Below are positions 10,909 through 35,460 of a stretch of 56,984 nucleotides of DNA, piece by piece. The first letter of the stretch is position 1. Each line of letters opens with the position of its first letter. The position numbers were made by a program, and so were the translations under genes. Under the pieces are notes generated by a model, which made no database searches, was not told where the DNA came from, and worked only from the letters and a program-made list of their open reading frames with translations. The DNA comes from Betaproteobacteria bacterium. Lineage in GTDB: Bacteria; Pseudomonadota; Gammaproteobacteria; Burkholderiales; CAIKXV01. The stretch lies in contig CANHBC010000002.1 of the NCBI GenBank assembly GCA_947458835.1, forward strand, positions 1 through 56,984, given 5' to 3'.

Positions 10909-10972
10909 CGCAACGTGTTCCGGATCGGCACGCACAGCGAGTTCGATCGCCTGCCTGCGAAGGCTACGCAGG

Positions 10973-14313: not shown

Positions 14314-14539
14314 CTGTTGACTCCTCCGGGGGACTGTCTGCGTTTACGGCTCCGCACGGCGAGGTGCGGCGCCAGGGTCGGATGCGAGTCTCGCCGATCG
14401 CGGGGCGGGGCGTCAAACGGCGGGAGAGGCGGACGCTTCGATTCGCGCCCGCGCGGCAACTCGTGGCTAAGCCATCGAATTGCCGCTCAATACGGGAAGC
14501 ATCGCCCTTTCCGTTGGCGCAGAATGGCGAGTGCCGGAT

Positions 14540-15053: not shown

Positions 15054-15219
15054 TGAATTCCGATTGGCCTGGTTTGGCAGATCTACCAACCCTCTGCAAT
15101 CTGCCATGCCTTCCATCGCGAAGCGCCTGTCAGCCCTGGTGCGTACGGATGACAATGCGCGTCAAGACCGTCGATTACGCACTCGGAAAACCGGGCATAC
15201 GCCAGGAATCTCTCCGAGA

Positions 15220-15714
15220 TCAGAGGCCCAGCGCACCGGTCCGCCGCGCCAGCACCTCGATGACCTTCCTCGCATAGCGGTCGCGCAGTACCGCGCTGCC
15301 AGCGTTGTACGCACCCACGGCCGTCCACGTATTGCCGTGCATCCGCATCTTCTGTGCAAGCACCCAGGCGCCCACGTGCACCGAGACGCAGGGATCGAGC
15401 AGGTCGCGCGCGGCGATGCCGTAGCGGCGAAGTTCCGGCAACCACAGGCTGTTGATCTGCATCAGCCCGATGTCGACCGAGCCATTGGCGTTGCGGCCGA
15501 TGGCGGTCGGGCGCAGCCCGCTCTCGACCTCGGCGATGGCGACGAGAAGCCAGGGGTTTACCTGGTGACGCCGGGCAGCCTGTTCCCAGCAGGTCGCAGG
15601 TGCCGAAGAGTCGGGTATGTGCAGCACGGTCTCTGCCGAGGCCACCCACGGGAACGCGACGAACGCCCACAGGGCTGCGGCGATCCAGGCACGGATGGCT
15701 TTCGCCCGGTTCAC
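15220..15714 (-). CDS. lytic transglycosylase (SLT domain; VirB1/PilT(R64)-like)
   Basis: Signal peptide (V)NRAKAIRAWIAAALWAFVAFPWVASA, catalytic-Glu motif AIAEVESG, then GLMQIN and AYNAG. GTG at 15714, 7 nt after the upstream stop, is preferred. The ATG at 15798 is an alternative. Confidence 0.8.
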   Translation of the reverse strand: MNRAKAIRAWIAAALWAFVAFPWVASAETVLHIPDSSAPATCWEQAARRHQVNPWLLVAIAEVESGLRPTAIGRNANGSVDIGLMQINSLWLPELRRYGIAARDLLDPCVSVHVGAWVLAQKMRMHGNTWTAVGAYNAGSAVLRDRYARKVIEVLARRTGALGL

Positions 15715-15721
15715 CTGGCGT

Positions 15722-16684
15722 TCACGGTCGCGGTTCGAGGCCGCCAGAGGACGACGGCGCGACTGGAATGCCTGGCATGCCCGCCGCCACAGGTGCACCC
15801 GGGACGCCAGCCCGCGCTACGCCACCGCCTGGCAGACCGCTTCCCGGAAGGCCAGGCTGTGGCCCGAGCACACTCAGTGGGTTGCGCGGATCCACTGGAC
15901 CGATTGGCGGAAGGGAAGGCAGCGGTGGCAACGGAGCAAATGGACCAGGCGACGCTTGTCCGAAGGGTGCCTGCACCGGCGGCCCGGCCGGCCGTGGCAT
16001 CGTGCCGGCGACTGCGCCCGCCTGCGGCTGCCCGGGCGGTGGGCGGCGATCGATCGCCGCGATCACCGCCGGGTTGCGCGGAAGTTCCACAGCGTTGCCG
16101 TCGATCATCACGGTACGTTCGGTGATCAGGCCGATTCGCCGGCCCATCCAGTCGTCACCTTCGGCGACCGTCGTGGCGCTGCCGCCGGCCTGGACGATTG
16201 CGCGACGCTGTTCGCCGTTGCGCACGATCGCCAGGACCTGCGGTGGCTGCGGACCTGGTACCACCGGTGCAGTTGCCATCGACGTGAGGGGGACTGCGCC
16301 TCCGTTGCCAGGCGGGGTGGCTGCCGGCTGGATGGGACTCGCCGGGCGCGCCGGCGTCCGGGGTGCTGCCGCCTGCGGCCGCGCAGCAGCCGGCGGCGAA
16401 GCCGCAGACGCCCCCGGCCCGAACATCTCCGACTGCAGTCGCCGCTCTTCCTGATTGCGACGGATGGGCGCCAGCGAAAGATTGTTGCGGATCGCCGCCT
16501 GCTTGGCCTCCTCCTCGAGCAATTGGGTCTCCAGGCGCATCTGCTCAAGCCGCCGCTGGGCGTTCTCGAATGCCAGGGGCTGGCCAGTCAGCGGATTCAC
16601 GGTGGCAGGCGCAGCCGCACCGGCCGGGGAACAGGCAATGGCGACGAACGACAGCAGCGCGGGCAGGGATCGGTTCATGGTCAC
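15722..16684 (-). CDS. PilP-like type IVb pilus biogenesis protein with a Pro/Gly-rich tail
   Basis: Signal peptide MTMNRSLPALLSFVAIACSPAGA, a coiled-coil (ENAQRRLEQMRLETQLLEEEAKQ) and a small beta domain (QVLAIVRNGEQRRAIVQAGGSATTVAEGDDWMGRRIGLITERTVMIDGNAVEL). This is followed by about 110 aa of Pro/Gly-rich low-complexity sequence. Confidence 0.5.
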   Translation of the reverse strand: MTMNRSLPALLSFVAIACSPAGAAAPATVNPLTGQPLAFENAQRRLEQMRLETQLLEEEAKQAAIRNNLSLAPIRRNQEERRLQSEMFGPGASAASPPAAARPQAAAPRTPARPASPIQPAATPPGNGGAVPLTSMATAPVVPGPQPPQVLAIVRNGEQRRAIVQAGGSATTVAEGDDWMGRRIGLITERTVMIDGNAVELPRNPAVIAAIDRRPPPGQPQAGAVAGTMPRPAGPPVQAPFGQASPGPFAPLPPLPSLPPIGPVDPRNPLSVLGPQPGLPGSGLPGGGVARAGVPGAPVAAGMPGIPVAPSSSGGLEPRP

Positions 16685-16716
16685 TCCGGCAACTGGAAAC
16701 GGGTCTGTACTTCAGG

Positions 16717-17697
16717 TCACAGCGTGCCCACGGCGCTCACGCGCAGCACCGTACCGCCGGGCAGCGTGGTGACGATCGCGGCGGTGAACGGCGGGACCTG
16801 CTGCGTGGCATCGGTGTTCTGAGGGTTGCGCACGAGGTTGCTGCAGTTGTCGTACTGCATCACCTGGCCATAGAGATCCGTAACATCGGCCACGGACAGG
16901 CCAAGGATCGACGCGGGACCGGTTCCGGATGCGATCAGCGGCGAGGGCGCGCCACACGCGGAAAGCGGCATCGAGCCTCCGAGGTCCCAGCGCTCGGCCG
17001 GCGTGCCACCGCTGGCGAAGTAGTTGATGGAGGCATCGCGGCTTGGATCGGCCTGCGCGCGCGTCTGGAAGTAGGTCTGGTAGGCGGCAGCGACGACCTG
17101 CATACGCGCGAGCGTCTGGCGCAGCAGGTCCGCCGCCAGGTTGAAGCCATCGACCAGCACGCCCTCGTCGTCGCCGCAGAGCGTGAGTTCTCCGGCGTCC
17201 GACAGTCCGGTGGCGCAGTTGCCAGCGGTGTCGAGGCGGCCATTCGCGCCTGGCGCGACGATCGCCACGATCCGGTAGAAGGTGTCGACACCACCGATCG
17301 TACGCATCAGGCGCGGCGTCATCAGCAGGCACATCGGCGCGGCAAAGCCATCGCGAAAGGCGGTGGAAGCCGACTGCGACAGGTAACGGGCAAGCGGCGC
17401 CAGCGTGGCCGGTCCGCTGCCGCAACGCCCGGTCGCACCGTCGGGCCTGACCGGGTCGATCGTCCCGCCGGGCAGCACGAACCGCGCACCGGCTTCACCG
17501 TCGACCAGCACCGGGTTGTCCCGGTAGGCCGCGAGGAAGGCCTGTCGTACCTCGGCGAGCTGGCGCCGGTTGTCGAGGCCGCCCTGGAAGGCGAGCATGG
17601 GCCCGAGGATGTCGAGCACGAACAGCACCAGCGGGATCATCACCGCGAGCACGATGGCCATTTCGGTGAGGGTGAAGCCTCGCGCGCGGCGTCTCAT
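16717..17697 (-). CDS. large prepilin-type protein (PilV-like minor pilin / possible tip adhesin)
   Basis: Class III signal peptide MRRRARG|FTLTEMAIVLAVM with Gly-1, Phe+1 and Glu+5. 326 aa. ATGA overlap with the pilT-like gene. Confidence 0.8.
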   Translation of the reverse strand: MRRRARGFTLTEMAIVLAVMIPLVLFVLDILGPMLAFQGGLDNRRQLAEVRQAFLAAYRDNPVLVDGEAGARFVLPGGTIDPVRPDGATGRCGSGPATLAPLARYLSQSASTAFRDGFAAPMCLLMTPRLMRTIGGVDTFYRIVAIVAPGANGRLDTAGNCATGLSDAGELTLCGDDEGVLVDGFNLAADLLRQTLARMQVVAAAYQTYFQTRAQADPSRDASINYFASGGTPAERWDLGGSMPLSACGAPSPLIASGTGPASILGLSVADVTDLYGQVMQYDNCSNLVRNPQNTDATQQVPPFTAAIVTTLPGGTVLRVSAVGTL

Positions 17698-18842
17698 GCA
17701 CCGGGCCCTCCGAGCCCGGACTGCATCAGCCAGGCGAACTCCTCCGCCGGATGCGCCACGTAGCGGGCATCCTCCTCCGCGATCTCGCCGCGTCGCACAC
17801 GATCGGCAAGCTGGGCGGTCATCTGGACATGGCCGTCCCGCCGACCCTGCGCCATGATGCCGCGCAACTGTCCGGTAGTCCCCTGCACGATCTGCTGGCG
17901 TACGGCAGGCGTGCTCACCATCAGTTCGCAGACCAGTGTCTGCGTGGCATCGTCCCGACGGCGTACCAGCGCCTGCGACAGCACGGCGATCAGGACATTG
18001 GCGAACACGCTGCGTGCCCAGGGCATCTCGTCCGGGGCGAAAAGGGACAGGACGCGTTCGACGGCCTCGGATGCATTCGGCGTGTGCAAAGTGGCAAGCA
18101 CGAGGTGACCGGTCTCGGCCGCAGAGAGCGCAGCATGCATCGTGGATCGATCTCGAATCTCGCCGATCACGATCACGTCCGGATCCTGGCGCATCGCCGC
18201 CCGTACCGCCCCGGCGAAATCAGACGCATCGACACCGACCTCGCGCGCACTGATATGGCCGATCGGCCGTCCGCCCCCGGGACAGTCCATCCGGTCGATC
18301 CGGTACTCGATCGGATCCTCGATGGTAAGCACGTGCAGCGCACGACTGCAGACCAGGCGCCGGACCAGCGCTGCCAGCGTGCTGCTCTTGCCGCTGCCGG
18401 TCGGCCCGGTTACCAGCAGCAGCCCGCGCGAGCGATCGACCAGCCGCCGCAGCAGGACTGGCAGCCCCAGCGTATCGAGGTCCGGCAGGGAGTCCCTGAG
18501 CCTGCGCAGCGAGACGCCCAGGTTTCCGCCGGTGCGCAGGTGCAGGTTTCCGCGCAGTCGGTACAGGCCCAACGTGGCCGAGAAGTCCATTGCCCCGCCG
18601 TCGCGCAGCCGCAGCGTCCGCCGGAGCGCCTCGGCGCTCGTGCCCGCAGAACCTTCGAACGGAACGAGGTTGCGCAGCAGTTCGAACAGCGCCGCCTCCT
18701 CCACCGCTGCTCCGTCGGCGACCGATAGCAGGCCACCGCAACGCTGCCGGACCGGCTCGCCAACCGCGAGGTGCAGGTCGGTCAGATCGTCCCTGGCGGA
18801 CAGCAGTCGCACCACCATCGACTCCAGCATGGAGATGGCCAT
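17694..18842 (-). CDS. pilT: PilT-family retraction ATPase
   Basis: Walker A LLLVTGPTGSGKSSTL, LTIEDPIEY, Walker B DVIVIGEIRD, AAETGHLVLATLHT and STPAVRQQIVQG (AIRNLIRE-like). Start moved to the ATG at 18842. Confidence 0.9.
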   Translation of the reverse strand: MAISMLESMVVRLLSARDDLTDLHLAVGEPVRQRCGGLLSVADGAAVEEAALFELLRNLVPFEGSAGTSAEALRRTLRLRDGGAMDFSATLGLYRLRGNLHLRTGGNLGVSLRRLRDSLPDLDTLGLPVLLRRLVDRSRGLLLVTGPTGSGKSSTLAALVRRLVCSRALHVLTIEDPIEYRIDRMDCPGGGRPIGHISAREVGVDASDFAGAVRAAMRQDPDVIVIGEIRDRSTMHAALSAAETGHLVLATLHTPNASEAVERVLSLFAPDEMPWARSVFANVLIAVLSQALVRRRDDATQTLVCELMVSTPAVRQQIVQGTTGQLRGIMAQGRRDGHVQMTAQLADRVRRGEIAEEDARYVAHPAEEFAWLMQSGLGGPGA

Positions 18843-18850
18843 GGGCGAAC

Positions 18851-19651
18851 TCACGGCGCCGCGACGGCGAAAAGCGGCAGCACGCTGCCCCAGGGGGTGG
18901 TGGTGCGCAGCGCGAGGGAAAACGGCATCGCCGCGGAAGCGTCGGTACCGTTGCTGGCCTCGACTACCCCACCCCATGCATTGACGGCGAGCAGCGGGTC
19001 GATGCCTGCGGCACGCGCGAGGCCGGACGCCTCGATCGGCGAGTAGTCTTCGATGCAAGGCAGTTCACCGGGCGCTGGCACCGCGCAGCGCACCGCGCGG
19101 AACCGGTTGATGCCGATGTCACGCGATGGATCCGAAAGCAACCGCGCGCGATACACGGACTCCAGTTGCCGGGCGAGACGGTCGAGGCGGGCGCGGGTCT
19201 CGGCCATCGCGCCAGCCTGGAGGTCGAATCCCGAAGCGACGACCCACCGCGCGCCGGGCGATGCCGTGAACTGCCCGGTCGACGTGTCCAGCGCCGATGC
19301 GTCAGCCTCGGCCGGTAGCCAAGCGGCCAACACGCGGTAGGCAATGCCGTCACGGGATAGCCGGTCGCTCACGGACAGACGCAGCCCCCAGCGGGGCACG
19401 ATTCCAGCCTCGCGCATGACGAGGTCTGCGCCTGGCGCCTCCACCACGCGGTCCACCGTTGCGAGTTCGCGCGCATACCAACCCAGCAGCGCGGCGCGGA
19501 CCTCCTGGAGCCACGCCTGCTGTACCCGCGCGAGGCCGTCGGCCTGGACACGCGTACCCAGCGTGGCCCAGCCGACAACGATGCTGGCCGCGATGGTCAC
19601 TACCGTAGCCACCACTGCGAGCACTGCATGGCCGGACTCCCCATTTCGCAT
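18851..19651 (-). CDS. pilin-like paralog of the 16717-17697 protein, lacking a canonical prepilin processing motif
   Basis: N-terminal hydrophobic helix HAVLAVVATVVTIAASIVVGW without G|FTLxE. It shares LQEVRAALLGWY.../LAEVRQAFLAAY... and DPSRDIGINRF/DPSRDASINYF with the PilV-like protein. Confidence 0.55.
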   Translation of the reverse strand: MRNGESGHAVLAVVATVVTIAASIVVGWATLGTRVQADGLARVQQAWLQEVRAALLGWYARELATVDRVVEAPGADLVMREAGIVPRWGLRLSVSDRLSRDGIAYRVLAAWLPAEADASALDTSTGQFTASPGARWVVASGFDLQAGAMAETRARLDRLARQLESVYRARLLSDPSRDIGINRFRAVRCAVPAPGELPCIEDYSPIEASGLARAAGIDPLLAVNAWGGVVEASNGTDASAAMPFSLALRTTTPWGSVLPLFAVAAP

Positions 19652-19660
19652 GGTGCTGCC

Positions 19661-20248
19661 TCAGCCCTGTGCGCTGTGGAACAGCATGTCGAAGGTCCCG
19701 GTAGTCGCCGCGCCTGAACCAGGCGCGCCGCGGCAGCGAAACCGGTCGAACCCGACCGTCGTATCGTTGCTGCCGTTGCACTCCTGCAGGAGTTCCAGGA
19801 TCTGTGCGTTGGGCACGCCGGTCGAGCGCGTGAAATAGCGCTGGCCGATGCCGCCGGTCTCCCGCTGGATCGACACCACCACGCCGGACATGATGCTGTT
19901 GACCAGCGCATTTCCGTCGGTGTTGTAGTCGGTCGGCTGCATGTAGGGCTGCTTCCAGTTGCCTGCAGGGACATCGACGCCGCAGAAGGTATTCGCAGCC
20001 TGGTTCGCCGCGTTGTCGAACAAACCGCGTACCTGGCGCGGGATGCAGTTGGTGTTCGCGTTCATGCGCAGCGCCGCTTCGCCGACGGTCCGCTGGAACG
20101 CGAGCAGCGCGGCGTTTCGGCTCTGTCCTCCGACGCCGAAGAAATAGCCCACGCCCACCGCCAATACCAGCAGCACTGCCACCACGATGCCCAGTTCGAC
20201 CAGCGTGAAACCGCCGGAACGACGCTTGATTCCGATCTCTCTGCCCAC
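19661..20248 (-). CDS. type IV major pilin (prepilin)
   Basis: GTG start at 20248 preceded by GGAGGG. 13-aa leader VGREIGIKRRSGG|FTLVELGIVVAVLLVLAVG. The C-terminal Cys pair ECNGSNDTTVGFDRFRC suggests a D-region-like disulfide loop. The rest of the 348-aa track ORF is Arg-rich shadow. Confidence 0.8.
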   Translation of the reverse strand: MGREIGIKRRSGGFTLVELGIVVAVLLVLAVGVGYFFGVGGQSRNAALLAFQRTVGEAALRMNANTNCIPRQVRGLFDNAANQAANTFCGVDVPAGNWKQPYMQPTDYNTDGNALVNSIMSGVVVSIQRETGGIGQRYFTRSTGVPNAQILELLQECNGSNDTTVGFDRFRCRGAPGSGAATTGTFDMLFHSAQG

Positions 20249-20299
20249 GTTGCCCTCCGTCGTGACTGCCTGTGAGTGCGCCCTGCGGCGCGATGGATC

Positions 20300-20317
20300 G
20301 TGATCCGGTCGGATCAC
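20300..20317. repeat. 7-bp inverted repeat GTGATCC-GGTC-GGATCAC overlapping the stop codon of the platform gene, upstream of the pilin gene
   Basis: Read directly from the sequence. Function unknown. Confidence 0.45.
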
Positions 20318-21498
20318 ACGTTGCGCAGGCCGATCGCCATGATCGGACCGTACGAAAGGAAGAAAGCGACCACGATGCCGGCCGCGAGCACCAGCATCGA
20401 GGCAAAGAACAGGACATCCGAGAGCCGTGCGGACAGTCCGATCACGTCCTCCTCGAATTCGCGCACCATGCGTTCGAGTTCGTCGGGCACCCGTCCGGAC
20501 TCGTCTGCCGCCGCCACGTCGGTGGCCACCAGCGGCGGGAAGCCGGCGCGCACGACCGCCTCGCGCATGAACACGCCGGTCTCCAGCAAGTGACCGAAAC
20601 GAGCAAACCAGCCACGCGTATCGGAGCGGCGCGCGGCGTCGCGCACAACGATCGCGGCGGTGGCGGGCGGGATCCGCGCACGCAGCAGTTGCGCGAATCC
20701 GTTCCACAGGGCGGCCAGTTCGGCCTTGACCGAGAGCTCCCGTACCAGCGGGAGCGACTCGGCCACTTGGCGGCAGGTCGATGTCCGGGTGAACGCGAAC
20801 AGCAGCACCGGCAGCGTGACGAAGATCGTCCAGGCCAGGGTCAGATGATCGTTGATCGCGCGGGTGAACTCGAAGTAGTTCACCGCGAACGGAGGCATGC
20901 GTGCGCCGGTCTTGGAGAAGAACTCCAGTGTCTTCGGCGCGGCCACGGTGACCACCACGAACAGGAACACATAGAGGAACGCGAAGGTGGCCACCGGGAT
21001 GGCAATCACCCGGGACAGCGAACCGCGCAGGGTGCGCTGCGTACGCACGTCATCGGCGAGTCGCTTCAGCGTCTCAGGCGTGCTGCCGGAGACCTCGGCG
21101 GCCCGCACCAGCATGCTGTCGCGCCTCGGGAAGCCGGCAAATGCCATCGCCGCGTGCAGTTCGGATCCGCCCAGGCACTGCTGCTGCATGGCCAGCGCCG
21201 CCTGCCTGAGCTTAGGATCCCGGAGGATGCCGCGACAGCTCTCCAACGCCTTGGGCGCCGGCGTGCCATTGCCCAGGCGCTGGCCGAATGACCGGTAGAA
21301 GCGCTCCAGGTCGCGAGCGTCGAACCCGCTGGAGATCCAGTTGCGAAGCGTCGCCGACGGATCCAGTCGCAGTCGAGTCGCGCGGACCCGGTTGGTCTTG
21401 AGCCGGGAATACGCGAAATCCCGGCTTTCGGCATAGACGACGCCGTGCACTGGCGCATTACCGGTATCGTATCCGCTGTAGTGGAAGGCGAGAAGCAT
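20314..21498 (-). CDS. GspF/PilC-family inner-membrane platform protein
   Basis: 394 aa with two T2SSF-like repeats and hydrophobic segments (IAIPVATFAFLYVFLFVVVTVAAP, LAWTIFVTLPVLLFAF, VLFFASMLVLAAGIVVAFFL). It follows the assembly ATPase. Confidence 0.8.
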   Translation of the reverse strand: MLLAFHYSGYDTGNAPVHGVVYAESRDFAYSRLKTNRVRATRLRLDPSATLRNWISSGFDARDLERFYRSFGQRLGNGTPAPKALESCRGILRDPKLRQAALAMQQQCLGGSELHAAMAFAGFPRRDSMLVRAAEVSGSTPETLKRLADDVRTQRTLRGSLSRVIAIPVATFAFLYVFLFVVVTVAAPKTLEFFSKTGARMPPFAVNYFEFTRAINDHLTLAWTIFVTLPVLLFAFTRTSTCRQVAESLPLVRELSVKAELAALWNGFAQLLRARIPPATAAIVVRDAARRSDTRGWFARFGHLLETGVFMREAVVRAGFPPLVATDVAAADESGRVPDELERMVREFEEDVIGLSARLSDVLFFASMLVLAAGIVVAFFLSYGPIMAIGLRNV

Positions 21499-21590
21499 CG
21501 TGGATCGGATCTTCGGCGACGTCCACCGGCAACACGATCGGTGAACATCAGGGGTTCAGTTCGAAACCTCGTTCTCTGAACGCGGGCGGG

Positions 21591-23606: not shown

Positions 23607-23607
23607 C

Positions 23608-24144
23608 TCAGCCTCCGAAGACAGTGAGAGTGAGCTCGAAGCTTCGCTCCGATGCGACGAAAGCGGTCACCGCAACCGGCAGCGCGCGGAAACTCGAGAC
23701 GAAGTCGCGCAGGCCCTGGTAGTTCAGGTAGGCGCCCTTGATCCGCACGCTGACCGCGCGCAGTTGCCCACCGGAATAGGGCACCGGACGTGCCATTTCG
23801 GCGAGCGGCGTCACTCGGGTCACGCCCGACCCGGTGGTAACGGCGAGCGATTCGATGCTGATCGCGTCGCTGACGCGCCGCTCCATGGCGGCCGACACAG
23901 TCTCGGCCAGCGCACGCTCGAGCAGCTTGCCAGCGTGCGGATCCGTTTGCCGTGCGCTGGCGATGTCGCGCACCCGCGCAGAGAGTGCCTCGAGCGAGGT
24001 ACGTTCCGACTCGAGGCTTACTGCCTGCGCCTGGGCCGAAACGACTTTCGGCTGTTGCCCGCGGGCCGCGAGGGCGCTAGCGAGGCAGCATGCCAGCAAG
24101 AGCGGAATCAGGATGGTCGCAACGGACGATGAGCGAGATCTCAT
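23608..24144 (-). CDS. small pilus/T2SS assembly protein (GspM/PilO(IVa)- or PilP-like), possible lipoprotein
   Basis: Signal/anchor MRSRSSSVATILIPLLLACC, a coiled-coil and a C-terminal ferredoxin-like segment VRIKGAYLNYQGLRDFVSSFRALPVAVTAFVASERSFELTLTVFG. The ATPase start lies 1 nt after its stop. Confidence 0.5.
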   Translation of the reverse strand: MRSRSSSVATILIPLLLACCLASALAARGQQPKVVSAQAQAVSLESERTSLEALSARVRDIASARQTDPHAGKLLERALAETVSAAMERRVSDAISIESLAVTTGSGVTRVTPLAEMARPVPYSGGQLRAVSVRIKGAYLNYQGLRDFVSSFRALPVAVTAFVASERSFELTLTVFGG

Positions 24145-25312
24145 TCAAGGCTCCTGGGGCATTCAGGCCACTTCGCACGCAACCGACCGGCGGAGCGATG
24201 GACAGCGCCGACGCGACCTGCGAGCGGTCAGTGGCCGCGTTCACGCTGGGGCGGTTCTGGAAGGTCATGCGCGGCCGGGTGAAAGGCACGGTGATCGTGT
24301 ATTCCGCGACCCGGCCGCGGGCTTCGAGCGAGACCCGGGCGCCGGACCGCCACAGTTCCGCCGCGCGGTCGAGCAGCGCGACCGGATCCAGACTCAACTC
24401 CTGTGCGAGCGCACTCGGCCGGTCCCGCATCAGGGCTCCGAGCTCGAGTTGCAACCGTTCGATGTCCTGGCGGGCGTGGCGGGCGACCGACTCGGCCTCG
24501 CGGATGCGCAAGGTCGTATCGAACAGGTTTGCCGCTGCGCCGAGTGCGAGCACCGCGCTAACCGCAAGCATCCCGTGGCGGATGTGGCGCAGCGCGATCC
24601 CCGCCCACTCTGGCTCGGCCGGATAGGACTCGACTTCCGCAGCTGCGACCAGAACGTCGGCCGCATTGAACAGGATCCAGGGCGCGTCCTCGGGCAGTTT
24701 CTGCTCGTAAAGCACCAGCCTGGCAATATCGCGTACCGGCTCGTCCGTGACGCTGCAGACCACGGCCGGCTGCAGCATCGGATCGGGGATCACCACGCCG
24801 ATGACCAGGCGCTCCCGTGCCAGACGGGTGGGCGATGCCTCATCGGCGCGCGGGCAGAGATCGATCAACACGGCGAACGGTCGCCCGCTGCGTGCGGCCG
24901 GCGACTGGCCCGCGTGGTGCAGGAGCCGATCCACCAGCATCAGCCCGGGCGCCACCGCGGTGATCCGTGGCTGGGCGGACCGGGCTTCGTCATTGGCAGC
25001 CGGCTGGAAGGGTTCGTCCCCGGAAAGCGAGTCTAGGTAACCCACCGGGGCTGCGTAGATCACGCCATCCCGCTTCGACCGGTTCACCACGCGCACACGG
25101 TCGAGCGACAGCCCTTCCCGCACCACGAACGACTTGGCCGCCTCGGTAGAACGCGGGCTGCTGGCCAATCGACGCTCCTCCGGATGGAAGGCGATCACCC
25201 GCACCGACTCGCCACGAGGCAGAGGGCCGGCACCGTCCACGTTTACCTGCCAGTGGGCAAGGGTCCGGCTAGTGAGGAAGGTGGTCAGGCAGACCGACTC
25301 TGCGCTTGCCAT
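24077..25312 (-). CDS. bitopic pilus assembly protein (R64 PilO-type / GspL-like)
   Basis: About 260 aa cytoplasmic region, one TM (GMLAVSAVLALGAAANLF), then a periplasmic coiled-coil plus domain. ATG at 25312, 4 nt after the secretin stop. Position matches pilO in pilL-N-O-P-Q-R-S clusters. Confidence 0.55.
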   Translation of the reverse strand: MASAESVCLTTFLTSRTLAHWQVNVDGAGPLPRGESVRVIAFHPEERRLASSPRSTEAAKSFVVREGLSLDRVRVVNRSKRDGVIYAAPVGYLDSLSGDEPFQPAANDEARSAQPRITAVAPGLMLVDRLLHHAGQSPAARSGRPFAVLIDLCPRADEASPTRLARERLVIGVVIPDPMLQPAVVCSVTDEPVRDIARLVLYEQKLPEDAPWILFNAADVLVAAAEVESYPAEPEWAGIALRHIRHGMLAVSAVLALGAAANLFDTTLRIREAESVARHARQDIERLQLELGALMRDRPSALAQELSLDPVALLDRAAELWRSGARVSLEARGRVAEYTITVPFTRPRMTFQNRPSVNAATDRSQVASALSIAPPVGCVRSGLNAPGALNEISLIVRCDHPDSALAGMLPR

Positions 25313-25316
25313 GGGC

Positions 25317-26948
25317 TCAGAGCGCCTCGGAGAACAACGCGTCGTAGGCCCCGCCGGGGATGACCGTCGCGCGCAGCAGCAGCACCACCTCGCGCGCGAC
25401 GGTACGCTGGTTTCGCCTGCTGAGGATGTCACCGGCCACCGGGGTGTCGACGAGCCCCGGTACGCCGGCGCGGGTCTCGTCGCCGACCGAACTGCGTATG
25501 CCGCCGAAGATCAATGTATTGCCGGATCGTGCAACCACCTGCATCAGCGACTGGTTCGTCCGCTGGACCGGTGCGGTGACCCGCGAACCTGCGCCGATCT
25601 CGAAGGTCTGGAACTCCTGCACGCGGTTGAGCACTGGAACGATCGTGAGCTGTACCTCGGTGTCGGACAGGATGTCCGGTTGCAGCGAGAGCGTCACGCC
25701 GTCGACCGCAAAGGCCGCTGCAGCGCTGGTCGTCGTGGTGCCACCCGCAGCACCTGCAACGATGGTGGACGCCACGGTCGGCACATACGGAATCTGCTGG
25801 CCATCGAATATCACCGATGGCGTATTGTTCATCGCGAGCACTCTCGGCTGCGAGATGACGCGCACGTTGGTGTACTGCTGCAGGGCGCGCAAGACCACGG
25901 ATATCGACCCGCGCGTCACGTTGGCGCTGGCCGCGGGGCTGAAGCCAGGCACCGAGATCGCACTGGCACCGAGCAGGGAAACCGTTCCGGTGGACGTCCC
26001 CGAAAGCACGCGCGTCCAGTCGATCCCGTAGCGGAACTCGTCGGTCAGCGTGACCTCGACGATCGAAGCTTCGATGTCCACCCTGCGCATCGCTACGGCA
26101 GAGAACCGGTTCAGGAACTGAGACACCCGCCCCAGCGCAGCGCCGTTCGATCGCACCGTGATGAACCCCATCTCCGGCATCACCTGGACCTCTGCGTTCG
26201 CACCGGCGAGGTCGCGCAGGAACTGCGTAAGGCCAGCCGCATCGGTCTGGAAGCGCCCGGTCACCGTGAACTGCGCCAGCACACCCGAACTGGACGGCGA
26301 CGCACCTTGGGCAGTGGCTCCAGATGCTCCGCCGCCAAAACCACTGGCTGCGCCACCGGCGACCGAGGATGCACTGCCACCGCCTTGCACGGTGGGCGAA
26401 CCACCGACCGAGTACTGTGCGGAGAGCCGCTGCATTACGTGCAACGGAAGCCGGAACGTGTAGGACGCGGTATCGGCCACGGTCACTGTACGGCTCGTCC
26501 GGTCGATCACGAGCGCGAAACCCGCCGCAAGCGCCAGGCGGCGCATCGCCGCCTCCGGCGTCAGGTCGCGCAGGTCGACGGTGACCGGGCGGTTAACCTG
26601 CACGCCTTCCATGAACAGCACGCTGTACTGGTGGTCGCGGGCCACGTTGGAGAGCAGCGCACCGAACGACACGCCCGAGGCGGCCACCGAGACATCTCCC
26701 GCCTCGGGCGTGGCGACCACCGCACGCACGCGAATGGGATCCTCCGGTCGCTCCGTCAGAACCTCCCGTGCCTCCGACTGAGGCTCGAGCGCGGCCGCGA
26801 CCATCCGGCGCGATTCGGCCGAGGCTTCGGCCCGGCGCTGCGGAAACGGACTGGCGCAGCCCGCGAGCAGCGAAACGACCGCAAGTGCGGCCAATGCGCG
26901 CATGGGTCCGTTTGTCTTCAGATCATGCATCCGTCGTGGGTAGCTCAT
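25317..26948 (-). CDS. secretin lipoprotein (R64 PilN-type type IVb pilus secretin)
   Basis: Lipobox VVSLLAGC. Secretin C-domain RVISQPRVLAMNNTPSVIFDGQQIPYV...GVPGLVDTPVAGDILSRR...LLLRATV. The start is one of the ATGs at 26948, 26930 or 26903. The track start at 27056 would overlap the upstream gene. Confidence 0.85.
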   Translation of the reverse strand: MSYPRRMHDLKTNGPMRALAALAVVSLLAGCASPFPQRRAEASAESRRMVAAALEPQSEAREVLTERPEDPIRVRAVVATPEAGDVSVAASGVSFGALLSNVARDHQYSVLFMEGVQVNRPVTVDLRDLTPEAAMRRLALAAGFALVIDRTSRTVTVADTASYTFRLPLHVMQRLSAQYSVGGSPTVQGGGSASSVAGGAASGFGGGASGATAQGASPSSSGVLAQFTVTGRFQTDAAGLTQFLRDLAGANAEVQVMPEMGFITVRSNGAALGRVSQFLNRFSAVAMRRVDIEASIVEVTLTDEFRYGIDWTRVLSGTSTGTVSLLGASAISVPGFSPAASANVTRGSISVVLRALQQYTNVRVISQPRVLAMNNTPSVIFDGQQIPYVPTVASTIVAGAAGGTTTTSAAAAFAVDGVTLSLQPDILSDTEVQLTIVPVLNRVQEFQTFEIGAGSRVTAPVQRTNQSLMQVVARSGNTLIFGGIRSSVGDETRAGVPGLVDTPVAGDILSRRNQRTVAREVVLLLRATVIPGGAYDALFSEAL

Positions 26949-26955
26949 GTCCGCC

Positions 26956-28134
26956 TCATCGCGCCTGTTCAACCACCAGCAACCGGCCGCCGTGCATCTC
27001 GCCGCGCAGCCCCAGCCGCGCAAGCGCACGGCGCAGCACCTCGCGCAGGTCTTCACCGTCCACCTCGGCGAAGGCTTCCACCATGAGCAGGGGCACGGAC
27101 CGGAACTCGACCTCCACTCCGTGCGGCTTCAGGTAATCGCGCAGGGTCGCCTGTACGCTGCGGTTCGGCAGAAATGAAAGGCGCTTGTCCGGCGTCGCGG
27201 CTGCAGCAACGTGCTGCGTCGGTCTATGGACCTTCGATGCCTCAGCCTCAAGACCGACCGCCAGCGGGGTATTGCGCCATGCATCGTCCTGCGCCCTGGC
27301 GCGGTCAGATCCGGGCTCCGCCTGCTCGGTCGGGGCTGGGGATGCGGCATCTGCAATGGCCGCCGGCGGGCAGGGCGCTGTCTCGCGCAGCGCCACCACG
27401 TGTACGACCGGGGCCGCTGGCGGCTGCACCTGCTCGATGATCGATCCGGGTTCGACGCCTGACGCCACGAGCAGTTCCCTGAGGCGTGCCGCGCGAAGGC
27501 GCGTGATCGGTGAGTCGGCGCGAGCCGCCTGGGAGAGGATCGTGACCGTGCTGGCCCCGCGGGCGATCGCCACCATGCGCGCGAGGTAGTCCACGCCACC
27601 AGGCTCGGTCTGCAGCACGCCGGTTCCGAAGGGTATGGTCACACGCTGCGTCCCGGTCGTGGGAGCCACGCAGGTATCCGGGATCGCTGCGCGCCGAACC
27701 GGTCCGACATACTCGATGACCGTCCGGGCACTGCTTTCAGCAGAGGTCACGAGCTCGAATCGGCCAGGCAGACCACGGACGACCAGGTACGGTCTCTGCA
27801 CCTGGAAGGTTCCATTTACCACCCTGAGCGAAGACAGCAACGCCGGATCGGAAGGCTGAAGGAACACATATCGGCCATTGTCGAAAACGATTCCCATGGA
27901 CGGCCCATCCCCGTGTACGCGGTAGGCGAAGTCCAGGGGTGCGGTTCGCATGCCGATTTCGGTAGCACTCTCGACCGGTACTGCAGCGCCCCCTGCGCCT
28001 GCATGAACCGCACAGGCACGTCCCGACAGCGCGAGCGCAGCGGCGAGGAGGCCGGCGGCGATGACGACGCCCCCACGCCCAGGCGCTATGAACGACCTCG
28101 ATACCGAACATGGAATCTCAATCATTTTGATCAT
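26956..28134 (-). CDS. multidomain periplasmic protein: VirB9-C-like domain + OmpA-like domain + TcpQ/PilL (STN-like) C-terminal domain
   Basis: Signal peptide. aa 66-140, LDFAYRVHGDGPSMGIVFDNGRYVFLQ...YLVVRGLPGRFELV, parallels the VirB9-like C-terminus in this operon (LNFDYRISGRAPFRPVQVLDDGRFTYLQ...FVVVQRLADRFLLRLG). OmpA-like RVTIPFGTGVLQ...ITRLRAARLRELLVASGVEPGSI. C-terminus ATLRDYLKPHGVEVEF...DLREVLRRALARLGL. Confidence 0.55.
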   Translation of the reverse strand: MIKMIEIPCSVSRSFIAPGRGGVVIAAGLLAAALALSGRACAVHAGAGGAAVPVESATEIGMRTAPLDFAYRVHGDGPSMGIVFDNGRYVFLQPSDPALLSSLRVVNGTFQVQRPYLVVRGLPGRFELVTSAESSARTVIEYVGPVRRAAIPDTCVAPTTGTQRVTIPFGTGVLQTEPGGVDYLARMVAIARGASTVTILSQAARADSPITRLRAARLRELLVASGVEPGSIIEQVQPPAAPVVHVVALRETAPCPPAAIADAASPAPTEQAEPGSDRARAQDDAWRNTPLAVGLEAEASKVHRPTQHVAAAATPDKRLSFLPNRSVQATLRDYLKPHGVEVEFRSVPLLMVEAFAEVDGEDLREVLRRALARLGLRGEMHGGRLLVVEQAR

Positions 28135-28142
28135 TCAGATTA

Positions 28143-29519
28143 TTACTGGGCGAGAATTTTTTCTATCGTGCCAGTCTCGGGCCGAACGATCAAGAAGGTT
28201 CGCTGGACGGTGAGCGAGAACCGGTGGCCTTGCCCGATGAGCAACGTGGGCGAAATGTTTCGCGAACGACCCAGTATGGTGCGCGAGGTTTCGACCAGAA
28301 CCGAACCGGCTGCGGACGAGACAGCCGACCCGCTGGCGCCGCCTGCGCCAGGCACGACGACCACGGTCGGGGGCTGGGATTCCCGCCGTTGTACGAGCGA
28401 AGCGAGCGCCGCGATGACGAAGCTCGAGCCGAACATCGTCCAGAAATGGCGATCCACGCGGTCGTTCAACCCGCTGCGTCCCTGCGCGTCGGTCGCCTGC
28501 GTCCCGAGCAGGTCGAGACTGGCTCCATCGGGCAGGATCAGTCGCCGGAACGCAGCCAGGACACGTTCCTGGCCGGGACGTACGTCGGCGCTGTAATCGC
28601 CGACCAGGCGTGAACCCATTGGAATCAGCAGGTGGGTTCCATGCACCGAGTCCCAGATATCCTGCGTGACCTGAGCCACCAGCGTGCCGGGCAGGTCGCT
28701 GTTGACCTCCGTGAGCAGCACGGCCGGGATCACCGTCCCTTCCAGCACGACAGGTCCGCGCAGCGCCGGACGCAGGGCAACGGGTAGCCCGCCGTCACCG
28801 GCGCCGCGCGTACGTGCCTGCTCCAGCCAGGCAACGTCGGTTCGTCCATCAGCCGGCGGCATTGCGAACGGCACCACAGGCGCCACTGCGGGCGCCGCAT
28901 GCCCGGTAGCCAGACCCGTCTCTCGGATAACGGCCGTGAGCCCGGCTGCCGACGAGGCGATGGCCGCGGAGGCCGAGACGCCCCCGCCTCCGGCGCCGAG
29001 GGCGAGCAGCGGACTGGAGCGCGCTTCGGCGAGGCGTCGCTCCTGCTCCGCTGCCAGCTGTTCCTGGCGGGAGGGTCGTGGGTCATTGCCCGACGGCGAA
29101 CCACGGACAGTGACCACGCCGTCAGGCGCCCTGAAACCCGGAAAGGGCAGCGACTCGGGCAAGGGCGGCCGCGCCGGCGCAGCGGGCAGGGGCGGCAGGG
29201 GGGGCAGGGCAGCAGTCGGCCCGGCCACCCGCGTCTGGTCGTCGATCGTGCGGTCCAGGGCATTGGTCGTCTCCGGCGGACGGACCGATGAGCCAGACGC
29301 AGCGGCCTTAGCGGCACCGGCATTTGCAGCGTTCGACGGTGGCGTGTCGCGCGCCTGCCACGCGAGCATCGGCAGTGCGATGACCAGCAGACCGCCGCCG
29401 ACCCACCAGTGAAGGTCTCTGCGCTGCGCAGGCCTGCGATCCGCCTGCAACGGGTCGGCATCGACCAGCGAGTCGATCCCGAACGCCGTCGTGGTACGCC
29501 CACCGCCTGTGTCACTCAT
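28143..29519 (-). CDS. virB10: VirB10/TrbI-family type IV secretion core protein
   Basis: Cytoplasmic N-terminus, TM WWVGGGLLVIALPMLAW and a Pro-rich linker (PPLPPLPAAPARPPLPESLP). TrbI-like C-domain GTLVAQVTQDIWDSVHGTHLLIPMGSRLVGDY...LNDRVDRHFWTMFGSSFVIA. ATGA overlap with the virB9-like gene. Confidence 0.85.
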   Translation of the reverse strand: MSDTGGGRTTTAFGIDSLVDADPLQADRRPAQRRDLHWWVGGGLLVIALPMLAWQARDTPPSNAANAGAAKAAASGSSVRPPETTNALDRTIDDQTRVAGPTAALPPLPPLPAAPARPPLPESLPFPGFRAPDGVVTVRGSPSGNDPRPSRQEQLAAEQERRLAEARSSPLLALGAGGGGVSASAAIASSAAGLTAVIRETGLATGHAAPAVAPVVPFAMPPADGRTDVAWLEQARTRGAGDGGLPVALRPALRGPVVLEGTVIPAVLLTEVNSDLPGTLVAQVTQDIWDSVHGTHLLIPMGSRLVGDYSADVRPGQERVLAAFRRLILPDGASLDLLGTQATDAQGRSGLNDRVDRHFWTMFGSSFVIAALASLVQRRESQPPTVVVVPGAGGASGSAVSSAAGSVLVETSRTILGRSRNISPTLLIGQGHRFSLTVQRTFLIVRPETGTIEKILAQ

Positions 29520-30373
29520 TGGGACGCCTCTTCAGCTCCCGGACCGATGGCTCGTCCACGACTGTCGACCTCGGCGGGGGGCAACTGCGTCCGCTCCACT
29601 ACCACCTGCGCCCGCCCCAGGCGCAGCAGGAAGCGGTCGGCCAGCCTCTGGACGACCACGAAACGGCCGCGCACCAGGTAGTTGACCCGTTCGCCTTCAC
29701 CGGTCTCGCCGCCCGCGAAGAACGCGGGCAGTTCCTGCAGCCCGACCGGCATCTGCAGGTAGGTGAAGCGCCCGTCGTCGAGCACCTGCACGGGGCGGAA
29801 CGGAGCCCGGCCGCTGATCCGGTAGTCGAAGTTGAGCCGATCGATGCGCGGCACGTCCGTAGCGGGACGCTCGCGCGGCGGCGACACCGCAGGCGGGGGT
29901 GGGGGCGCATCCCGACCCGGTGGCTCGCCGCGCGGCACGATCAGCCCTGGATGAGACCAGCTGACGCGCTGGTACCAGGCGCCCCCTTCCGGCGAACTGC
30001 GCAGCCCAAGCTGGTAGGTGCGCCGGTTCGTCACGAGGGTGCCGCTGGTGTAGAGATCCGCGCGCAGCGGCTTCAGGAAAACGTTCGGACCCTTGTCCTG
30101 CACCAGCCATTGCACGGTATCGCCCAGTGCGAACGCCACGACCGACTCGTCTGGCTCCAGCGCGATGTGCGTGACCGCACCCGGCCGGGTCAGCAGCAGG
30201 TACGACTCGTTCGGGTCGTAGCGGAACACGACCAACCGGGTGTCCTGGGGCATCGCGATGGGTGGCTGCCGGGCGCTTGCAGCCCCGCCGCTTGCCAGCG
30301 TGGCAAGCGGCGCCAGGACCGCTGCGATGCACACCGCTGCGCGGAGCACCGGCGCCACAAGCCAGTGCCTCAA
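29516..30373 (-). CDS. virB9: VirB9/TrbG (CagX-family) type IV secretion core protein
   Basis: Signal peptide. N-domain RLVVFRYDPNESYLLLTRPGAVTHIAL...TNRRTYQLGLR. C-domain NFDYRISGRAPFRPVQVLDDGRFTYLQMP...LPAFFA...RVNYLVRGRFVVVQRLADRFLLRLG. The TTG (or nearby GTG) start overlaps the virB8-like stop. Confidence 0.85.
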   Translation of the reverse strand: MRHWLVAPVLRAAVCIAAVLAPLATLASGGAASARQPPIAMPQDTRLVVFRYDPNESYLLLTRPGAVTHIALEPDESVVAFALGDTVQWLVQDKGPNVFLKPLRADLYTSGTLVTNRRTYQLGLRSSPEGGAWYQRVSWSHPGLIVPRGEPPGRDAPPPPPAVSPPRERPATDVPRIDRLNFDYRISGRAPFRPVQVLDDGRFTYLQMPVGLQELPAFFAGGETGEGERVNYLVRGRFVVVQRLADRFLLRLGRAQVVVERTQLPPAEVDSRGRAIGPGAEEASQ

Positions 30374-31062
30374 GACAGTTCCTCCGCCACGTTGAAGCGG
30401 GTCACATAGAGGCCGATCGGGTTCTGGATGATCTCGGCCTCGGTCTTCGGCGGCACGATCGCGTAGTGCACCGTGACCTGCAACGTCTTCGACTGCACGG
30501 CTGCGCCGAGCGAGCGGGTCTCGGCGCGCACGCGTACCTGCATCACCGTTTCGTCGAGCGGTGCGACCGTGACGATGGCCACCGACCGACTGAGCCCCGG
30601 GTCCTTGCGCAACCGCTCGATGGGCCGGTCAGCCTTCATCCAGTCGAGCATCTGCTGGGTGGCCAGGCCGGAGGTCATCCGGTAGGCCTCTGCGAGCTGG
30701 CGCTCGGTGAGGTAAGGATCCACCGTCAGCAACTGCTGAACCCAGCGCGAGACGAAGTAGGTGCGCTCGGCGCGGCCCGGCCGGTAGCGCTGCGCAGCGG
30801 CCCGGTCGGCGATCGCCAGGCCGTTGTCGGCCACCTTCACCACGTACGGCTCGACGGTCTTGAGCGGCAGCAGCACGACCAGCGCGATGCATGCAGCCAG
30901 CAACGCGAGCGTGGTCAGCACCCACCCGACGAACAGCCGGTTGCGGTCGACCACCGCGCAGCCGTAGCGCTCGAACCACTCGACCCGCGCCCGTTCGTAG
31001 GCATTGAGCGGTGCCGAGGACGCCGGCACGCTGGTGCGCCGGCGCAGGAGGGCCTTCCACAT
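30370..31062 (-). CDS. virB8: VirB8-family type IV secretion protein
   Basis: 230 aa. N-terminal cytoplasmic segment, one TM (FVGWVLTTLALLAACIALVVLLPL) and a periplasmic domain ending ...HYAIVPPKTEAEIIQNPIGLYVTRFNV, which matches the characteristic NPlGl.Vt.y tail. Confidence 0.85.
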   Translation of the reverse strand: MWKALLRRRTSVPASSAPLNAYERARVEWFERYGCAVVDRNRLFVGWVLTTLALLAACIALVVLLPLKTVEPYVVKVADNGLAIADRAAAQRYRPGRAERTYFVSRWVQQLLTVDPYLTERQLAEAYRMTSGLATQQMLDWMKADRPIERLRKDPGLSRSVAIVTVAPLDETVMQVRVRAETRSLGAAVQSKTLQVTVHYAIVPPKTEAEIIQNPIGLYVTRFNVAEELS

Positions 31063-31168
31063 GCATCACCCCGCTGGAATCGCGCCGCGGACTGCGGCGA
31101 CGAGGTGATGATGGAAGGGACGGTGCCGCGGGTCGCTCGGCGGAACCGGCCCCTCCGGGGCGAAACCG

Positions 31169-32224: not shown

Positions 32225-32237
32225 CCTGTGTTTTGCT

Positions 32238-33209: not shown

Positions 33210-33227
33210 CGGGTCAGGACTCCGCGG

Positions 33228-34217: not shown

Positions 34218-34301
34218 CGGGGAAGCTCCCGGTTGGTTGAAGAAGGCGGAGGGACGGGCGCCGCAGGCCGCGCTGGCCGTCAGCCGGCCGCGGACGCGGG
34301 C

Positions 34302-35456: not shown

Positions 35457-35460
35457 CGGG

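Follow-up and report, generated by a model that had tools for sequence, protein, structure and literature searches.

Gene content of the locus

Within a 56,984-nucleotide window from a freshwater Burkholderiales bacterium (contig CANHBC010000002.1; "the window" denotes this whole stretch, which with the 10 kb past its right edge makes up the ~67 kb of the genome covered here), we analyzed a chromosomal run of 15 co-directional, closely packed minus-strand open reading frames (ORFs; 15220-31062) in which genes for VirB8, VirB9 and VirB10, core proteins of a type IV secretion system (T4SS), stand directly before the genes of a type IV pilus. An earlier note, made from the sequence alone, had described this arrangement, and its 15 genes, overlaps and gaps were all recovered when positions were rechecked: a TTGA overlap joins virB8 and virB9 (30370-30373), ATGA overlaps lie at 29516-29519 and 17694-17697, gaps of 8, 7, 4 and 1 nt occur within the operon, and the biggest are 92 and 65 nt. 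Where the two gene sets meet, 8 nt separate virB10 from a gene we call the linker gene and 7 nt separate that gene from the secretin gene, and this translational coupling of the triplet to the pilus genes is kept across the clade of closely related loci (window clade). Starting from virB8, the genes are:

30370..31062, minus strand: VirB8/TrbF-like bitopic inner-membrane protein, 230 aa (Pfam VirB8, NCBIfam TrbF)
29516..30373, minus strand: VirB9/TrbG-like protein, 285 aa, TTG start overlapping the virB8 stop (Pfam CagX, TIGR02781/TIGR02775)
28143..29519, minus strand: VirB10/TrbI-like protein, 458 aa (Pfam TrbI)
26956..28134, minus strand: three-domain linker protein, 392 aa, in the PilL/TcpQ position (hhalign, AlphaFold2 model, Foldseek)
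25317..26948, minus strand: secretin with lipoprotein signal (LLAGC) (Pfam Secretin)
24077..25312, minus strand: bitopic protein, 411 aa, in the PilO2/BfpC/GspL position (AlphaFold2 model, Foldseek)
23608..24144, minus strand: small putative lipoprotein, 178 aa, in the PilP/GspM position (position; no family match)
21591..23606, minus strand: PilB/GspE/MshE-type assembly ATPase, 671 aa, with an N-terminal cyclic di-GMP (c-di-GMP)-binding MshEN motif (T2SSE, MshEN, NF053729)
20314..21498, minus strand: GspF/PilC platform protein, 394 aa (T2SSF, GspF TIGR02120)
19661..20248, minus strand: major pilin candidate, 195 aa, leader ...RRSGG↓FTLVELG (N_methyl just under cutoff)
18851..19651, minus strand: 266-aa protein with an N-terminal hydrophobic helix, possibly pilin-like without E5 (no family match)
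17694..18842, minus strand: PilT/PilU-family retraction-type ATPase, 382 aa (pilT_fam, T2SSE)
16717..17697, minus strand: large pilin-like protein, 326 aa, MRRRARG↓FTLTEM, in the PilV position (N_methyl, TIGR02532)
15722..16684, minus strand: secreted proline-rich protein, 320 aa (weak PilP-family signal)
15220..15798, minus strand: lytic transglycosylase (SLT), pilus-operon type, probable start 15714 (SLT PF01464)

Searched against Pfam, VirB8 matched PF04335 over the whole profile (E 3e-35), VirB9 matched CagX (PF03524, E 3e-56; also TIGR02781/TIGR02775 of NCBIfam) and VirB10 matched TrbI (PF03743, E 8e-53). All three span the full profile length at scores well above the Pfam gathering scores and with the topology expected from the translations, and the search supports the earlier reading of the three as full-length homologs. 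VirB10 comprises an N-terminal tail, a transmembrane helix, a proline-rich region and a C-terminal domain, and its alignment with VirB10 of complete T4SS loci revealed no clade-specific deletion in the C-terminal region, the hydrophobic two-helix segment included. Standing in canonical order, these TrbF, TrbG and TrbI homologs nevertheless left every Trb/VirB score under its NCBIfam equivalog cutoff, and the VirB10-like protein reached 81 bits with the ComB10 model NF038092 (cutoff 300).

The remaining parts of a secretion system are absent locally, as had been claimed. Using two reference sets as tblastn queries (the Trb proteins of two related loci, L001 and L005, and all VirB/Pil proteins of the IncI2 plasmid R721), we found no VirB2, VirB3, VirB4, VirB5, VirB6 or VirB11, no TrbB, TrbC, TrbD, TrbE, TrbJ, TrbL or TrbH, no coupling protein and no relaxase in the 57-kb window; the TraI_2 relaxase and type IV coupling protein (T4CP) of L005 and the VirD4 of R721 specifically had no match there. 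The VirB4/TrbE ATPase is the one ubiquitous T4SS marker, and neither the TrbE of L001 nor the VirB4 of R721 matched the window or the 10 kb beyond its right edge. Each of the 15 operon ORFs is accounted for in another way.

Components of the pilus machine

The pilus part of the operon holds the defining components of a type IV pilus, namely a PilB-type ATPase, a PilC/GspF platform, prepilin-type pilins and a secretin. The secretin (PF00263, E 8e-25, with a weak STN match and a lipobox, LLAGC, read from the translation) scored best in NCBIfam with MshL (TIGR02519, 157 bits, cutoff 250) and reached 67.5 bits with the PilN-family model TIGR02520 (cutoff 288). For the assembly ATPase we recovered T2SSE (E 2e-67), MshEN (PF05157) and the MshE-type c-di-GMP motif NF053729 at 66 bits, above its cutoff of 38, and no other Msh family was matched in NCBIfam. 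The platform protein matched T2SSF (PF00482, E 6e-22) in two stretches as well as GspF TIGR02120, and the second ATPase scored 293 bits with pilT_fam (PilT/PilU), just under the 319-bit cutoff, along with T2SSE (E 6e-44). We read the pilus machine as retractile and probably controlled by c-di-GMP.

Three pilin-type proteins had been proposed, and two of them stand, both carrying G↓FTLxE leaders. The 195-aa candidate matched N_methyl at E 2e-4 (19.9/21.1 bits, just under the 21.2-bit Pfam cutoff) and did not match the PilS pilin family PF08805, and the 326-aa protein matched N_methyl at E 4e-4 (20.2 bits, same cutoff) and TIGR02532 at 20.0 bits, above its cutoff of 16.3. The third, the 266-aa protein at 18851-19651, matched no family, N_methyl included, and its homologs hold the same position in loci L058 and L092.

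The five proteins left unassigned gave only noise in Pfam at E 10. Among them, the 411-aa bitopic protein had no Pfam match even at that threshold, and its profile retrieved nothing from PDB sequences; a PilO2 label was tried and dropped, as comparison with PilO2 of R721, L001 and L086 was not significant and PF06864 was not matched. Its AlphaFold2 (AF2) model (predicted local distance difference test score, pLDDT, 64) has a cytoplasmic domain, a long helix and a periplasmic alpha/beta domain, and Foldseek paired the cytoplasmic domain with the actin-like fold 3hrg (prob 0.98) and with cyto-EpsL 1w97 (prob 0.63), a modeled fold that is only compatible with a GspL/actin-like cytoplasmic domain. 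The start of this gene agrees with an independent gene call (P0126), and the gene for the 178-aa putative lipoprotein, which matched no family, begins 68 nt inside it (24077-24144), an overlap also present in L006, L007, L009 and L011. The 320-aa proline-rich protein had no Pfam match and a sub-cutoff match to TIGR03021 pilP_fam (E 6e-4). The "GspL/M-like" and "PilP-like" labels given earlier are weakly borne out. The transglycosylase (PF01464, E 2e-22) had been called VirB1-like; it is 40% identical to the SLT of the R721 pil cluster and has no match to R721 VirB1, and by this comparison it is of the pilus-operon type and the VirB1-like label is rejected.

A linker protein combining VirB9-like and secretin-partner-like domains

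The 392-aa protein encoded between virB10 and the secretin gene matched no Pfam or NCBIfam family itself. A profile built from 20 positional homologs, on the other hand, matched the VirB9 family in hhalign (98.7%, E 3e-16; residues 60-148 to VirB9 173-267), and scanning the family members singly returned CagX in 12 of the 20, OmpA in 7, TcpQ in 4 and DotD in 3. In the AF2 model (mean pLDDT 66), disordered linkers join three domains with pLDDT ~80-90: residues 67-148 form a beta-sandwich, and 157-252 and the C-terminal 315-392 are both alpha/beta. Foldseek against the PDB matched the C-terminal domain to BfpG of the BfpB-BfpG type IVb secretin complex (9u5s_R, TM-score 0.68, prob 1.0) and otherwise returned many OmpA-like peptidoglycan-binding domains (prob 0.99-1.0), CagT and the VirB9 of the Xanthomonas citri core complex (prob 0.94), with weak E-values because the model is multi-domain. 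The linker thus consists of a domain like the VirB9 C-terminal domain (VirB9-CTD), an OmpA-like domain and a BfpG/TcpQ-like domain. An alternative gene call (P0106, 313 aa) begins at an internal methionine, which would cost the protein its signal peptide and some of its VirB9-like domain; relatives conserve the longer, 392-aa ORF. No match to the window linker was found among PLSDB plasmids (tblastn).

Evidence on the origin of the first domain came from a T4SS-only locus of Paraburkholderia denitrificans (L075:12144-12602), in which a 152-aa lipoprotein (LIAGC lipobox) encoded right after virB10 consists of the VirB9-CTD-like domain alone (hhalign 97.6% against the linker family). Similar second VirB9-like matches lie behind virB10 in L078 and L081. 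In this Trb subfamily the L075 lipoprotein may be an accessory in the VirB7 position, and because it carries only that domain, the VirB9-CTD-like domain would have been present in the subfamily before its fusion to OmpA/TcpQ modules. The N-terminal domain of the linker therefore looks like an original accessory of the Trb subfamily that was extended in pilus-linked loci by OmpA-like and secretin-partner modules. As the PilL of R721 has no similarity to the VirB9 profile, PilL proteins do not in general carry the VirB9-like domain.

Related loci and evolutionary origin

Relatives of the VirB9-like protein are few and form 104 clusters, mostly metagenomic. We classified loci by tblastn (five contexts from the protein collection and 80 loci from GTDB species genomes), and those with enough flank show four layouts:

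TrbB/C/D/E/J/L ahead of the triplet and pilus genes behind it: 21 loci (Crenobacter, Chromobacterium, Aromatoleum, Methylophilus, Polaromonas, Ramlibacter, Achromobacter, Thiobacillus)
Trb genes only: 15 loci (Paraburkholderia and relatives)
VirB8-10 and pilus genes without Trb: 11 loci (window, L002, L004, L006, L007, L009, L014, L052, L058, L064, L067)
Isolated VirB8-10 triplet: 11 loci (Ferrovum and other metagenome-assembled genomes, MAGs)

No cultured isolate was identified with the layout of VirB8-10 and pilus genes without Trb. The full hybrids carry TrbB-L, VirB8-10, the linker, the secretin, the ATPase and the platform protein. A further one lies on the 257-kb Rhodoferax ferrireducens T118 plasmid NC_007901, typed as conjugative, MOBH and MPF_T, in the order TraD ... 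TrbB-TrbC-VirB4 ... AAA ATPase - VirB8-TrbG-TrbI-TcpQ-TcpQ-x-x-PilO2-ATPase. The earlier statement that no described system has T4SS core genes in a type IV filament operon does not survive these 21 loci and the plasmid, where TrbB-L, VirB8-10 and pilus genes share one cluster, nor R721, where VirB1-B11/D4 stand between pilL/pilM and pilN-pilV.

In a rough neighbor-joining tree of concatenated VirB8, VirB9 and VirB10, the window clade, all of it pilus-bearing and without Trb genes, stands beside L005 and a clade of orphan triplets, and the window clade, L005 and the orphans together nest among complete Trb+pilus clusters. Given this nesting, the loss or relocation of TrbB-L is derived. Two loci, L019 and L060, combine complete Trb genes with window-type PilB/PilC.

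Orphan triplets (L003, L029, L043, L044, L046, L047, L062 of Ferrovum myxofaciens P3G, L066 and L069; match at ~9300-12100 in each) are flanked on both sides by 10 kb free of T4SS and pilus genes. One of them, L003, shares its Rho-thioredoxin-ferredoxin-SOD (superoxide dismutase) neighborhood with L004, which carries the triplet with a secretin and an ATPase, and this common neighborhood suggests that a locus can shed its pilus genes and keep the triplet. More than one locus can occur in a MAG, as in Hydrogenophilales nzgw566 (L058 and L064, both VirB8-10 with pilus genes) and SKS3.bin10 (L024, pilus-linked, and L033, an orphan triplet).

Selection, synteny and genomic setting

To evaluate constraint, ratios of nonsynonymous to synonymous substitution rates (dN/dS) were calculated by the pairwise Nei-Gojobori method between the window and five relatives:

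VirB8: 0.04-0.09
VirB9: 0.17-0.24
VirB10 C-terminal domain: 0.13-0.16
linker: 0.24-0.33
secretin: 0.07-0.10
PilB, PilC and major pilin: ~0.08-0.10

Since these ratios are low, the VirB genes are not in decay, and purifying selection acts on VirB8-10 as strongly as on the pilus core. Among the operon's proteins VirB8 is the most conserved (90-94% identity in relatives), and the major pilin candidate is 87-90% and the 178-aa lipoprotein 75-80% identical. The synonymous rate (dS) of virB8 was 0.43-0.63, as against 0.8-1.3 in other operon genes for the same genome pairs. The earlier suggestion of a streamlined remnant of a conjugative element is correct as to origin, given the nesting among Trb+pilus clusters, and fails as to decay, given dN/dS of 0.04-0.24 for VirB8-10.

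The operon is carried by the source contig (ENA ERZ27280125 k141_392789, about 160 kb) and also by CANGYF010000001, CANGXU010000026, CAIQON010000352, JBIITW010000083 and JGI Ga0620611_000141. Gene order is conserved as well, which speaks for vertical inheritance. The upstream series histidine kinase, TctC, acyl-CoA dehydrogenase, TctC, TctC, virB8 is common to L002, L006, L007, L009, L010 and L011, with the acyl-CoA dehydrogenase 94-97% identical, and the more distant L092 retains all 15 genes in the same order, 14 of them at 54-85% identity (VirB8 81%, VirB9 54%, VirB10 C-terminal domain 66%, secretin 83%, PilB 82%, PilT 64%, SLT 84%, 326-aa pilin-like protein 78%) and the linker in two segments of 45% and 73%. 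A disrupted copy was found in the relative L091 (13120-17640, 74-90% identical), where pilB breaks off after about residue 470 and genes for a phage-type integrase and a PriCT_2/Toprim/DUF3987 primase come next; from this gene content, the L091 operon looks to have been interrupted by an inserted mobile element.

Both flanks of the window operon carry ordinary Bug and metabolic genes, as previously reported (TctC, acyl-CoA dehydrogenase, histidine kinase, thiamine pyrophosphate enzyme, alcohol dehydrogenase and similar genes), and the 10 kb past the right edge are also metabolic. Five paralogous TctC/Bug receptor genes bracket the operon (13327-14313 and 31169-36471), four upstream, interrupted by the acyl-CoA dehydrogenase gene, and one downstream, and their copy number beside virB8 varies among relatives. 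The SLT gene is closely followed by a Gp49-like (HigB/RelE-type toxin) ORF (14667-15155, minus strand), and in L092 a Gp49 + HTH_3 pair closely precedes virB8 (2042-2666); a toxin-antitoxin pair therefore accompanies the operon, at opposite ends.

No integrase was found at the window locus and no tRNA in the window. The Rfam gathering scan of the window returned no RNA family, hence no c-di-GMP riboswitch. Scans of 14000-32500 yielded no sigma-70 promoter-like site and terminator-like sites only at chance level, both of which are silent on transcript structure.

A proposed retained scaffold and its alternatives

The prevailing view regards T4SS and type IV filament machines as distinct nanomachines, whose cooperation on R64-, IncI2- and PAPI-1-type elements is confined to cell contact. 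That the linker joins a VirB9-like to a secretin-partner domain, and that lineages keep only VirB8-10 and the pilus under strong purifying selection, suggests instead a physical coupling of the two within the envelope, and that the outer core of a T4SS can be retained for some purpose besides moving substrates. Building on the gene content, origin, synteny, purifying selection and linker architecture described above, we infer such coupling and a present need for VirB8-10 in pilus/secretin assembly or positioning rather than in substrate transfer.

Under our favored explanation, which we judge about evenly poised between being right and wrong, the operon encodes a retractile pilus that still builds the VirB8-10 scaffold of a Trb+pilus conjugation module and is docked to it at the secretin by the linker. 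The ancestor would have been a conjugative cluster in which genes for a type IV pilus accompanied those of a T4SS of the Trb type (MPF_T), with trbF/G/I directly before the pilus genes. The window lineage would then have lost the TrbB-C-D-E-J-L half, along with coupling protein and relaxase, from the locus, which passed to vertical chromosomal inheritance, leaving a machine of lipoprotein secretin, MshE-like PilB, PilC, PilT, pilins and SLT in which VirB8-VirB9-VirB10 would still assemble as an envelope-spanning scaffold. Of the linker domains, the VirB9-CTD-like one would bind the VirB9/VirB10 outer ring, the OmpA-like one peptidoglycan and the BfpG/TcpQ-like one the secretin. Such docking may, in the ancestral elements, set the mating pilus beside the DNA channel, and after loss of the Trb half the scaffold would have been kept since secretin/pilus assembly or positioning came to depend on VirB8-10. 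A bolder form, that this is a chimeric nanomachine in which the VirB8-10 core was exapted as a selected structural pilus part, tethered by the linker and free of T4SS ATPases, would make these the first T4SS core proteins inside a type IV filament machine; we advance it only tentatively and lean toward doubting it.

Several observations weigh against a retained scaffold. The orphan pairs compared (L044/46/47, L062/66/69, L029/33, L003) are under equally strong purifying selection (dN/dS 0.05-0.16), so the triplet can persist without an adjacent pilus. Split T4SS layouts exist, since the triplet in L005 (9267-20774) stands apart from its partners: virB8-9-10 is followed by two unrelated genes and then, 2.5 kb away, by a block of TraI_2 relaxase, T4CP, TrbB, TrbC, TrbD and TrbE, with no pilus genes. 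Close relatives of the window locus are all MAGs. The A24 prepilin peptidase is absent from the window (tblastn, R721 A24 query), so that the earlier description of a "complete" pilus machine was slightly overstated; the peptidase may sit elsewhere, as in PAPI-1 and Tfp7 (PMC3984277). Finally, the pilus part appears to have alignment-type proteins of its own, so the need for VirB8-10 is not obvious. This last point also weakens the earlier proposal that VirB8-10 replaces a PilMNOP-type alignment complex: an actin-like/GspL-like bitopic protein and a small lipoprotein hold the PilO2 and PilP positions, and the resemblance of the modeled cytoplasmic domain of the 411-aa protein to actin-like folds and cyto-EpsL argues against simple replacement.

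The alternative that fares best, although we think it unlikely, is a split T4SS, in which VirB8-10 are the core of a Trb-type system whose ATPases, pilin, VirB6, coupling protein and relaxase lie elsewhere in the genome and the pilus is an accessory mating pilus as in R64 and IncI2. Complete clusters already have their Trb genes in two blocks 2.5-3 kb apart, often with an opposite-strand AAA ATPase gene between them, L005 is rearranged with its triplet upstream of relaxase-T4CP-TrbB-E, and partners in trans would easily explain orphan triplets under purifying selection. Set against this are the lack of any T4SS gene in the window or the 10 kb beyond its right edge, a corresponding lack within 9-10 kb upstream of virB8 in L002, L006, L007, L009, L010, L013 and L014, and the position of the locus in conserved chromosomal synteny, with no integrase or tRNA found, rather than on a mobile element.

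A stand-alone VirB8-10 envelope complex, independent of both T4SS ATPases and the pilus and placed before pilus genes only by history, seems to us quite unlikely. It would account for the 11 loci that have VirB8-10 and no T4SS or pilus gene within 10 kb, among which the compared pairs are constrained, and for L003 and L004 occupying one neighborhood without and with pilus genes, but to our knowledge no T4SS-independent role of VirB8-10 is known, the linker bears both VirB9-like and secretin-partner-like domains, and the triplet is translationally coupled to the pilus genes throughout the clade. We consider it improbable that a VirB9/10 outer-membrane channel serves ComB-like uptake, or other passage of DNA or protein into or out of the cell, powered by the pilus ATPases: the VirB10 region matching the outer-membrane helices is kept, a retraction ATPase is present and ComB10 is a detectable, if far sub-cutoff, relative of the VirB10-like protein, whereas the window has no ComB4/VirB4, ComB2/3/6 or ComEC/ComEA-type genes and the dedicated secretin already gives an outer-membrane conduit. 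That virB8-10 are non-functional leftovers of a dead conjugative element, a view to which the absence of the rest of the T4SS and the integrase/primase element in the L091 pilB lend themselves, is rejected on dN/dS as very improbable, with intact, full-length ORFs in all relatives examined, the high identity of VirB8 and all 15 genes kept in L092.

If the retained-scaffold explanation is true, the locus offers a natural minimal system for VirB8-10 scaffold assembly without ATPases, explains the positioning of mating pili beside the conjugation channel and documents chromosomal domestication of conjugation parts. Should the missing Trb half lie elsewhere in the genome, we would be looking at an ordinary split conjugation system with an accessory pilus.

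Comparison with known systems

Conjugative type IVb "thin" pili that stabilize mating are described for R64, IncI2 TP114 and PAPI-1 (PMC9045228, PMC5297154, PMC3984277), and the R64 thin-pilus variant of type IVb pili has an evolutionary tie to conjugation (PMC3984277). With R64, PAPI-1 and Burkholderia Tfp7 the window shares an order of TcpQ/PilL-type protein, lipoprotein secretin, bitopic accessory protein, small lipoprotein, ATPase, platform, pilin, large minor pilin and SLT, including the R64-variant feature of a PilL/TcpQ-type secretin partner upstream of a lipoprotein secretin (homologs in related loci match TcpQ PF10671). It differs from the R64/Tfp7 type in having a retraction ATPase in the operon and VirB8-10 beside it, and in lacking matches to PilO2 (PF06864), PilS (PF08805) or the PilN-family equivalog, for which reason its pilus part is not an R64-type member by sequence; secretin, ATPase and platform score best with MshL, GspE/PilB and GspF models. 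As to the MSHA pilus, the window has the MshE-type ATPase but not an MshL equivalog or other msh genes.

R721 of IncI2 is annotated with one co-directional cluster of TcpQ-family PilL, PilM, VirB1, B2, B3, B4, B8, B9, B10, B11 and VirD4, followed by PilN, PilO2, PilP, PilQ, PilR, PilS, SLT, A24 peptidase and PilV. Both loci have virB8-virB9-virB10 in this order, then downstream a secretin, accessory proteins, ATPase, platform, pilin and SLT, as well as a TcpQ-family protein. VirB1-B6, B11, VirD4, a MOBP relaxase, the A24 prepilin peptidase, PilO2/PilP family proteins and a PilV shufflon are found in R721 and not in the window, while the PilT-type ATPase, the MshE-type c-di-GMP domain and the VirB9-like domain in the PilL-position protein belong to the window and not to R721.

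An IncP/Ti-type Trb system shares TrbF/G/I homologs with the window, which has none of TrbB/C/D/E/J/L or TrbH. Helicobacter ComB is a VirB8-10-type core that works without coupling protein or relaxase; it keeps ComB2/3/4/6 and has no type IV pilus genes, whereas the window is without a VirB4-type ATPase and shows weak ComB10 similarity.

Also close are the betaproteobacterial Trb+pilus clusters (for example the Rhodoferax ferrireducens T118 plasmid, Crenobacter sp. SG2305 and the Thiobacillus MAG L060), which belong to the same VirB8-9-10 clade and share with the window the junction of virB10, VirB9-CTD/TcpQ-type protein and secretin as well as the downstream pilus gene order. Unlike the window, they have TrbB, TrbC, TrbD, TrbE, TrbJ and TrbL upstream; some also possess a T4CP and a MOBH relaxase and are located on plasmids or islands. 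In the literature we found no name or description for this family with its VirB9-CTD/TcpQ linker, none of a VirB8-10 + pilus version without any T4SS ATPase and none of orphan VirB8-10 triplets. The window locus is a conjugation-derived T4SS/pilus hybrid cluster, and co-clustering of T4SS and pilus genes already has precedent; what appears to be undescribed is the retention of VirB8-10 only, under strong constraint at a chromosomal locus, together with the VirB9-CTD/OmpA/TcpQ linker and the conserved orphan triplets.

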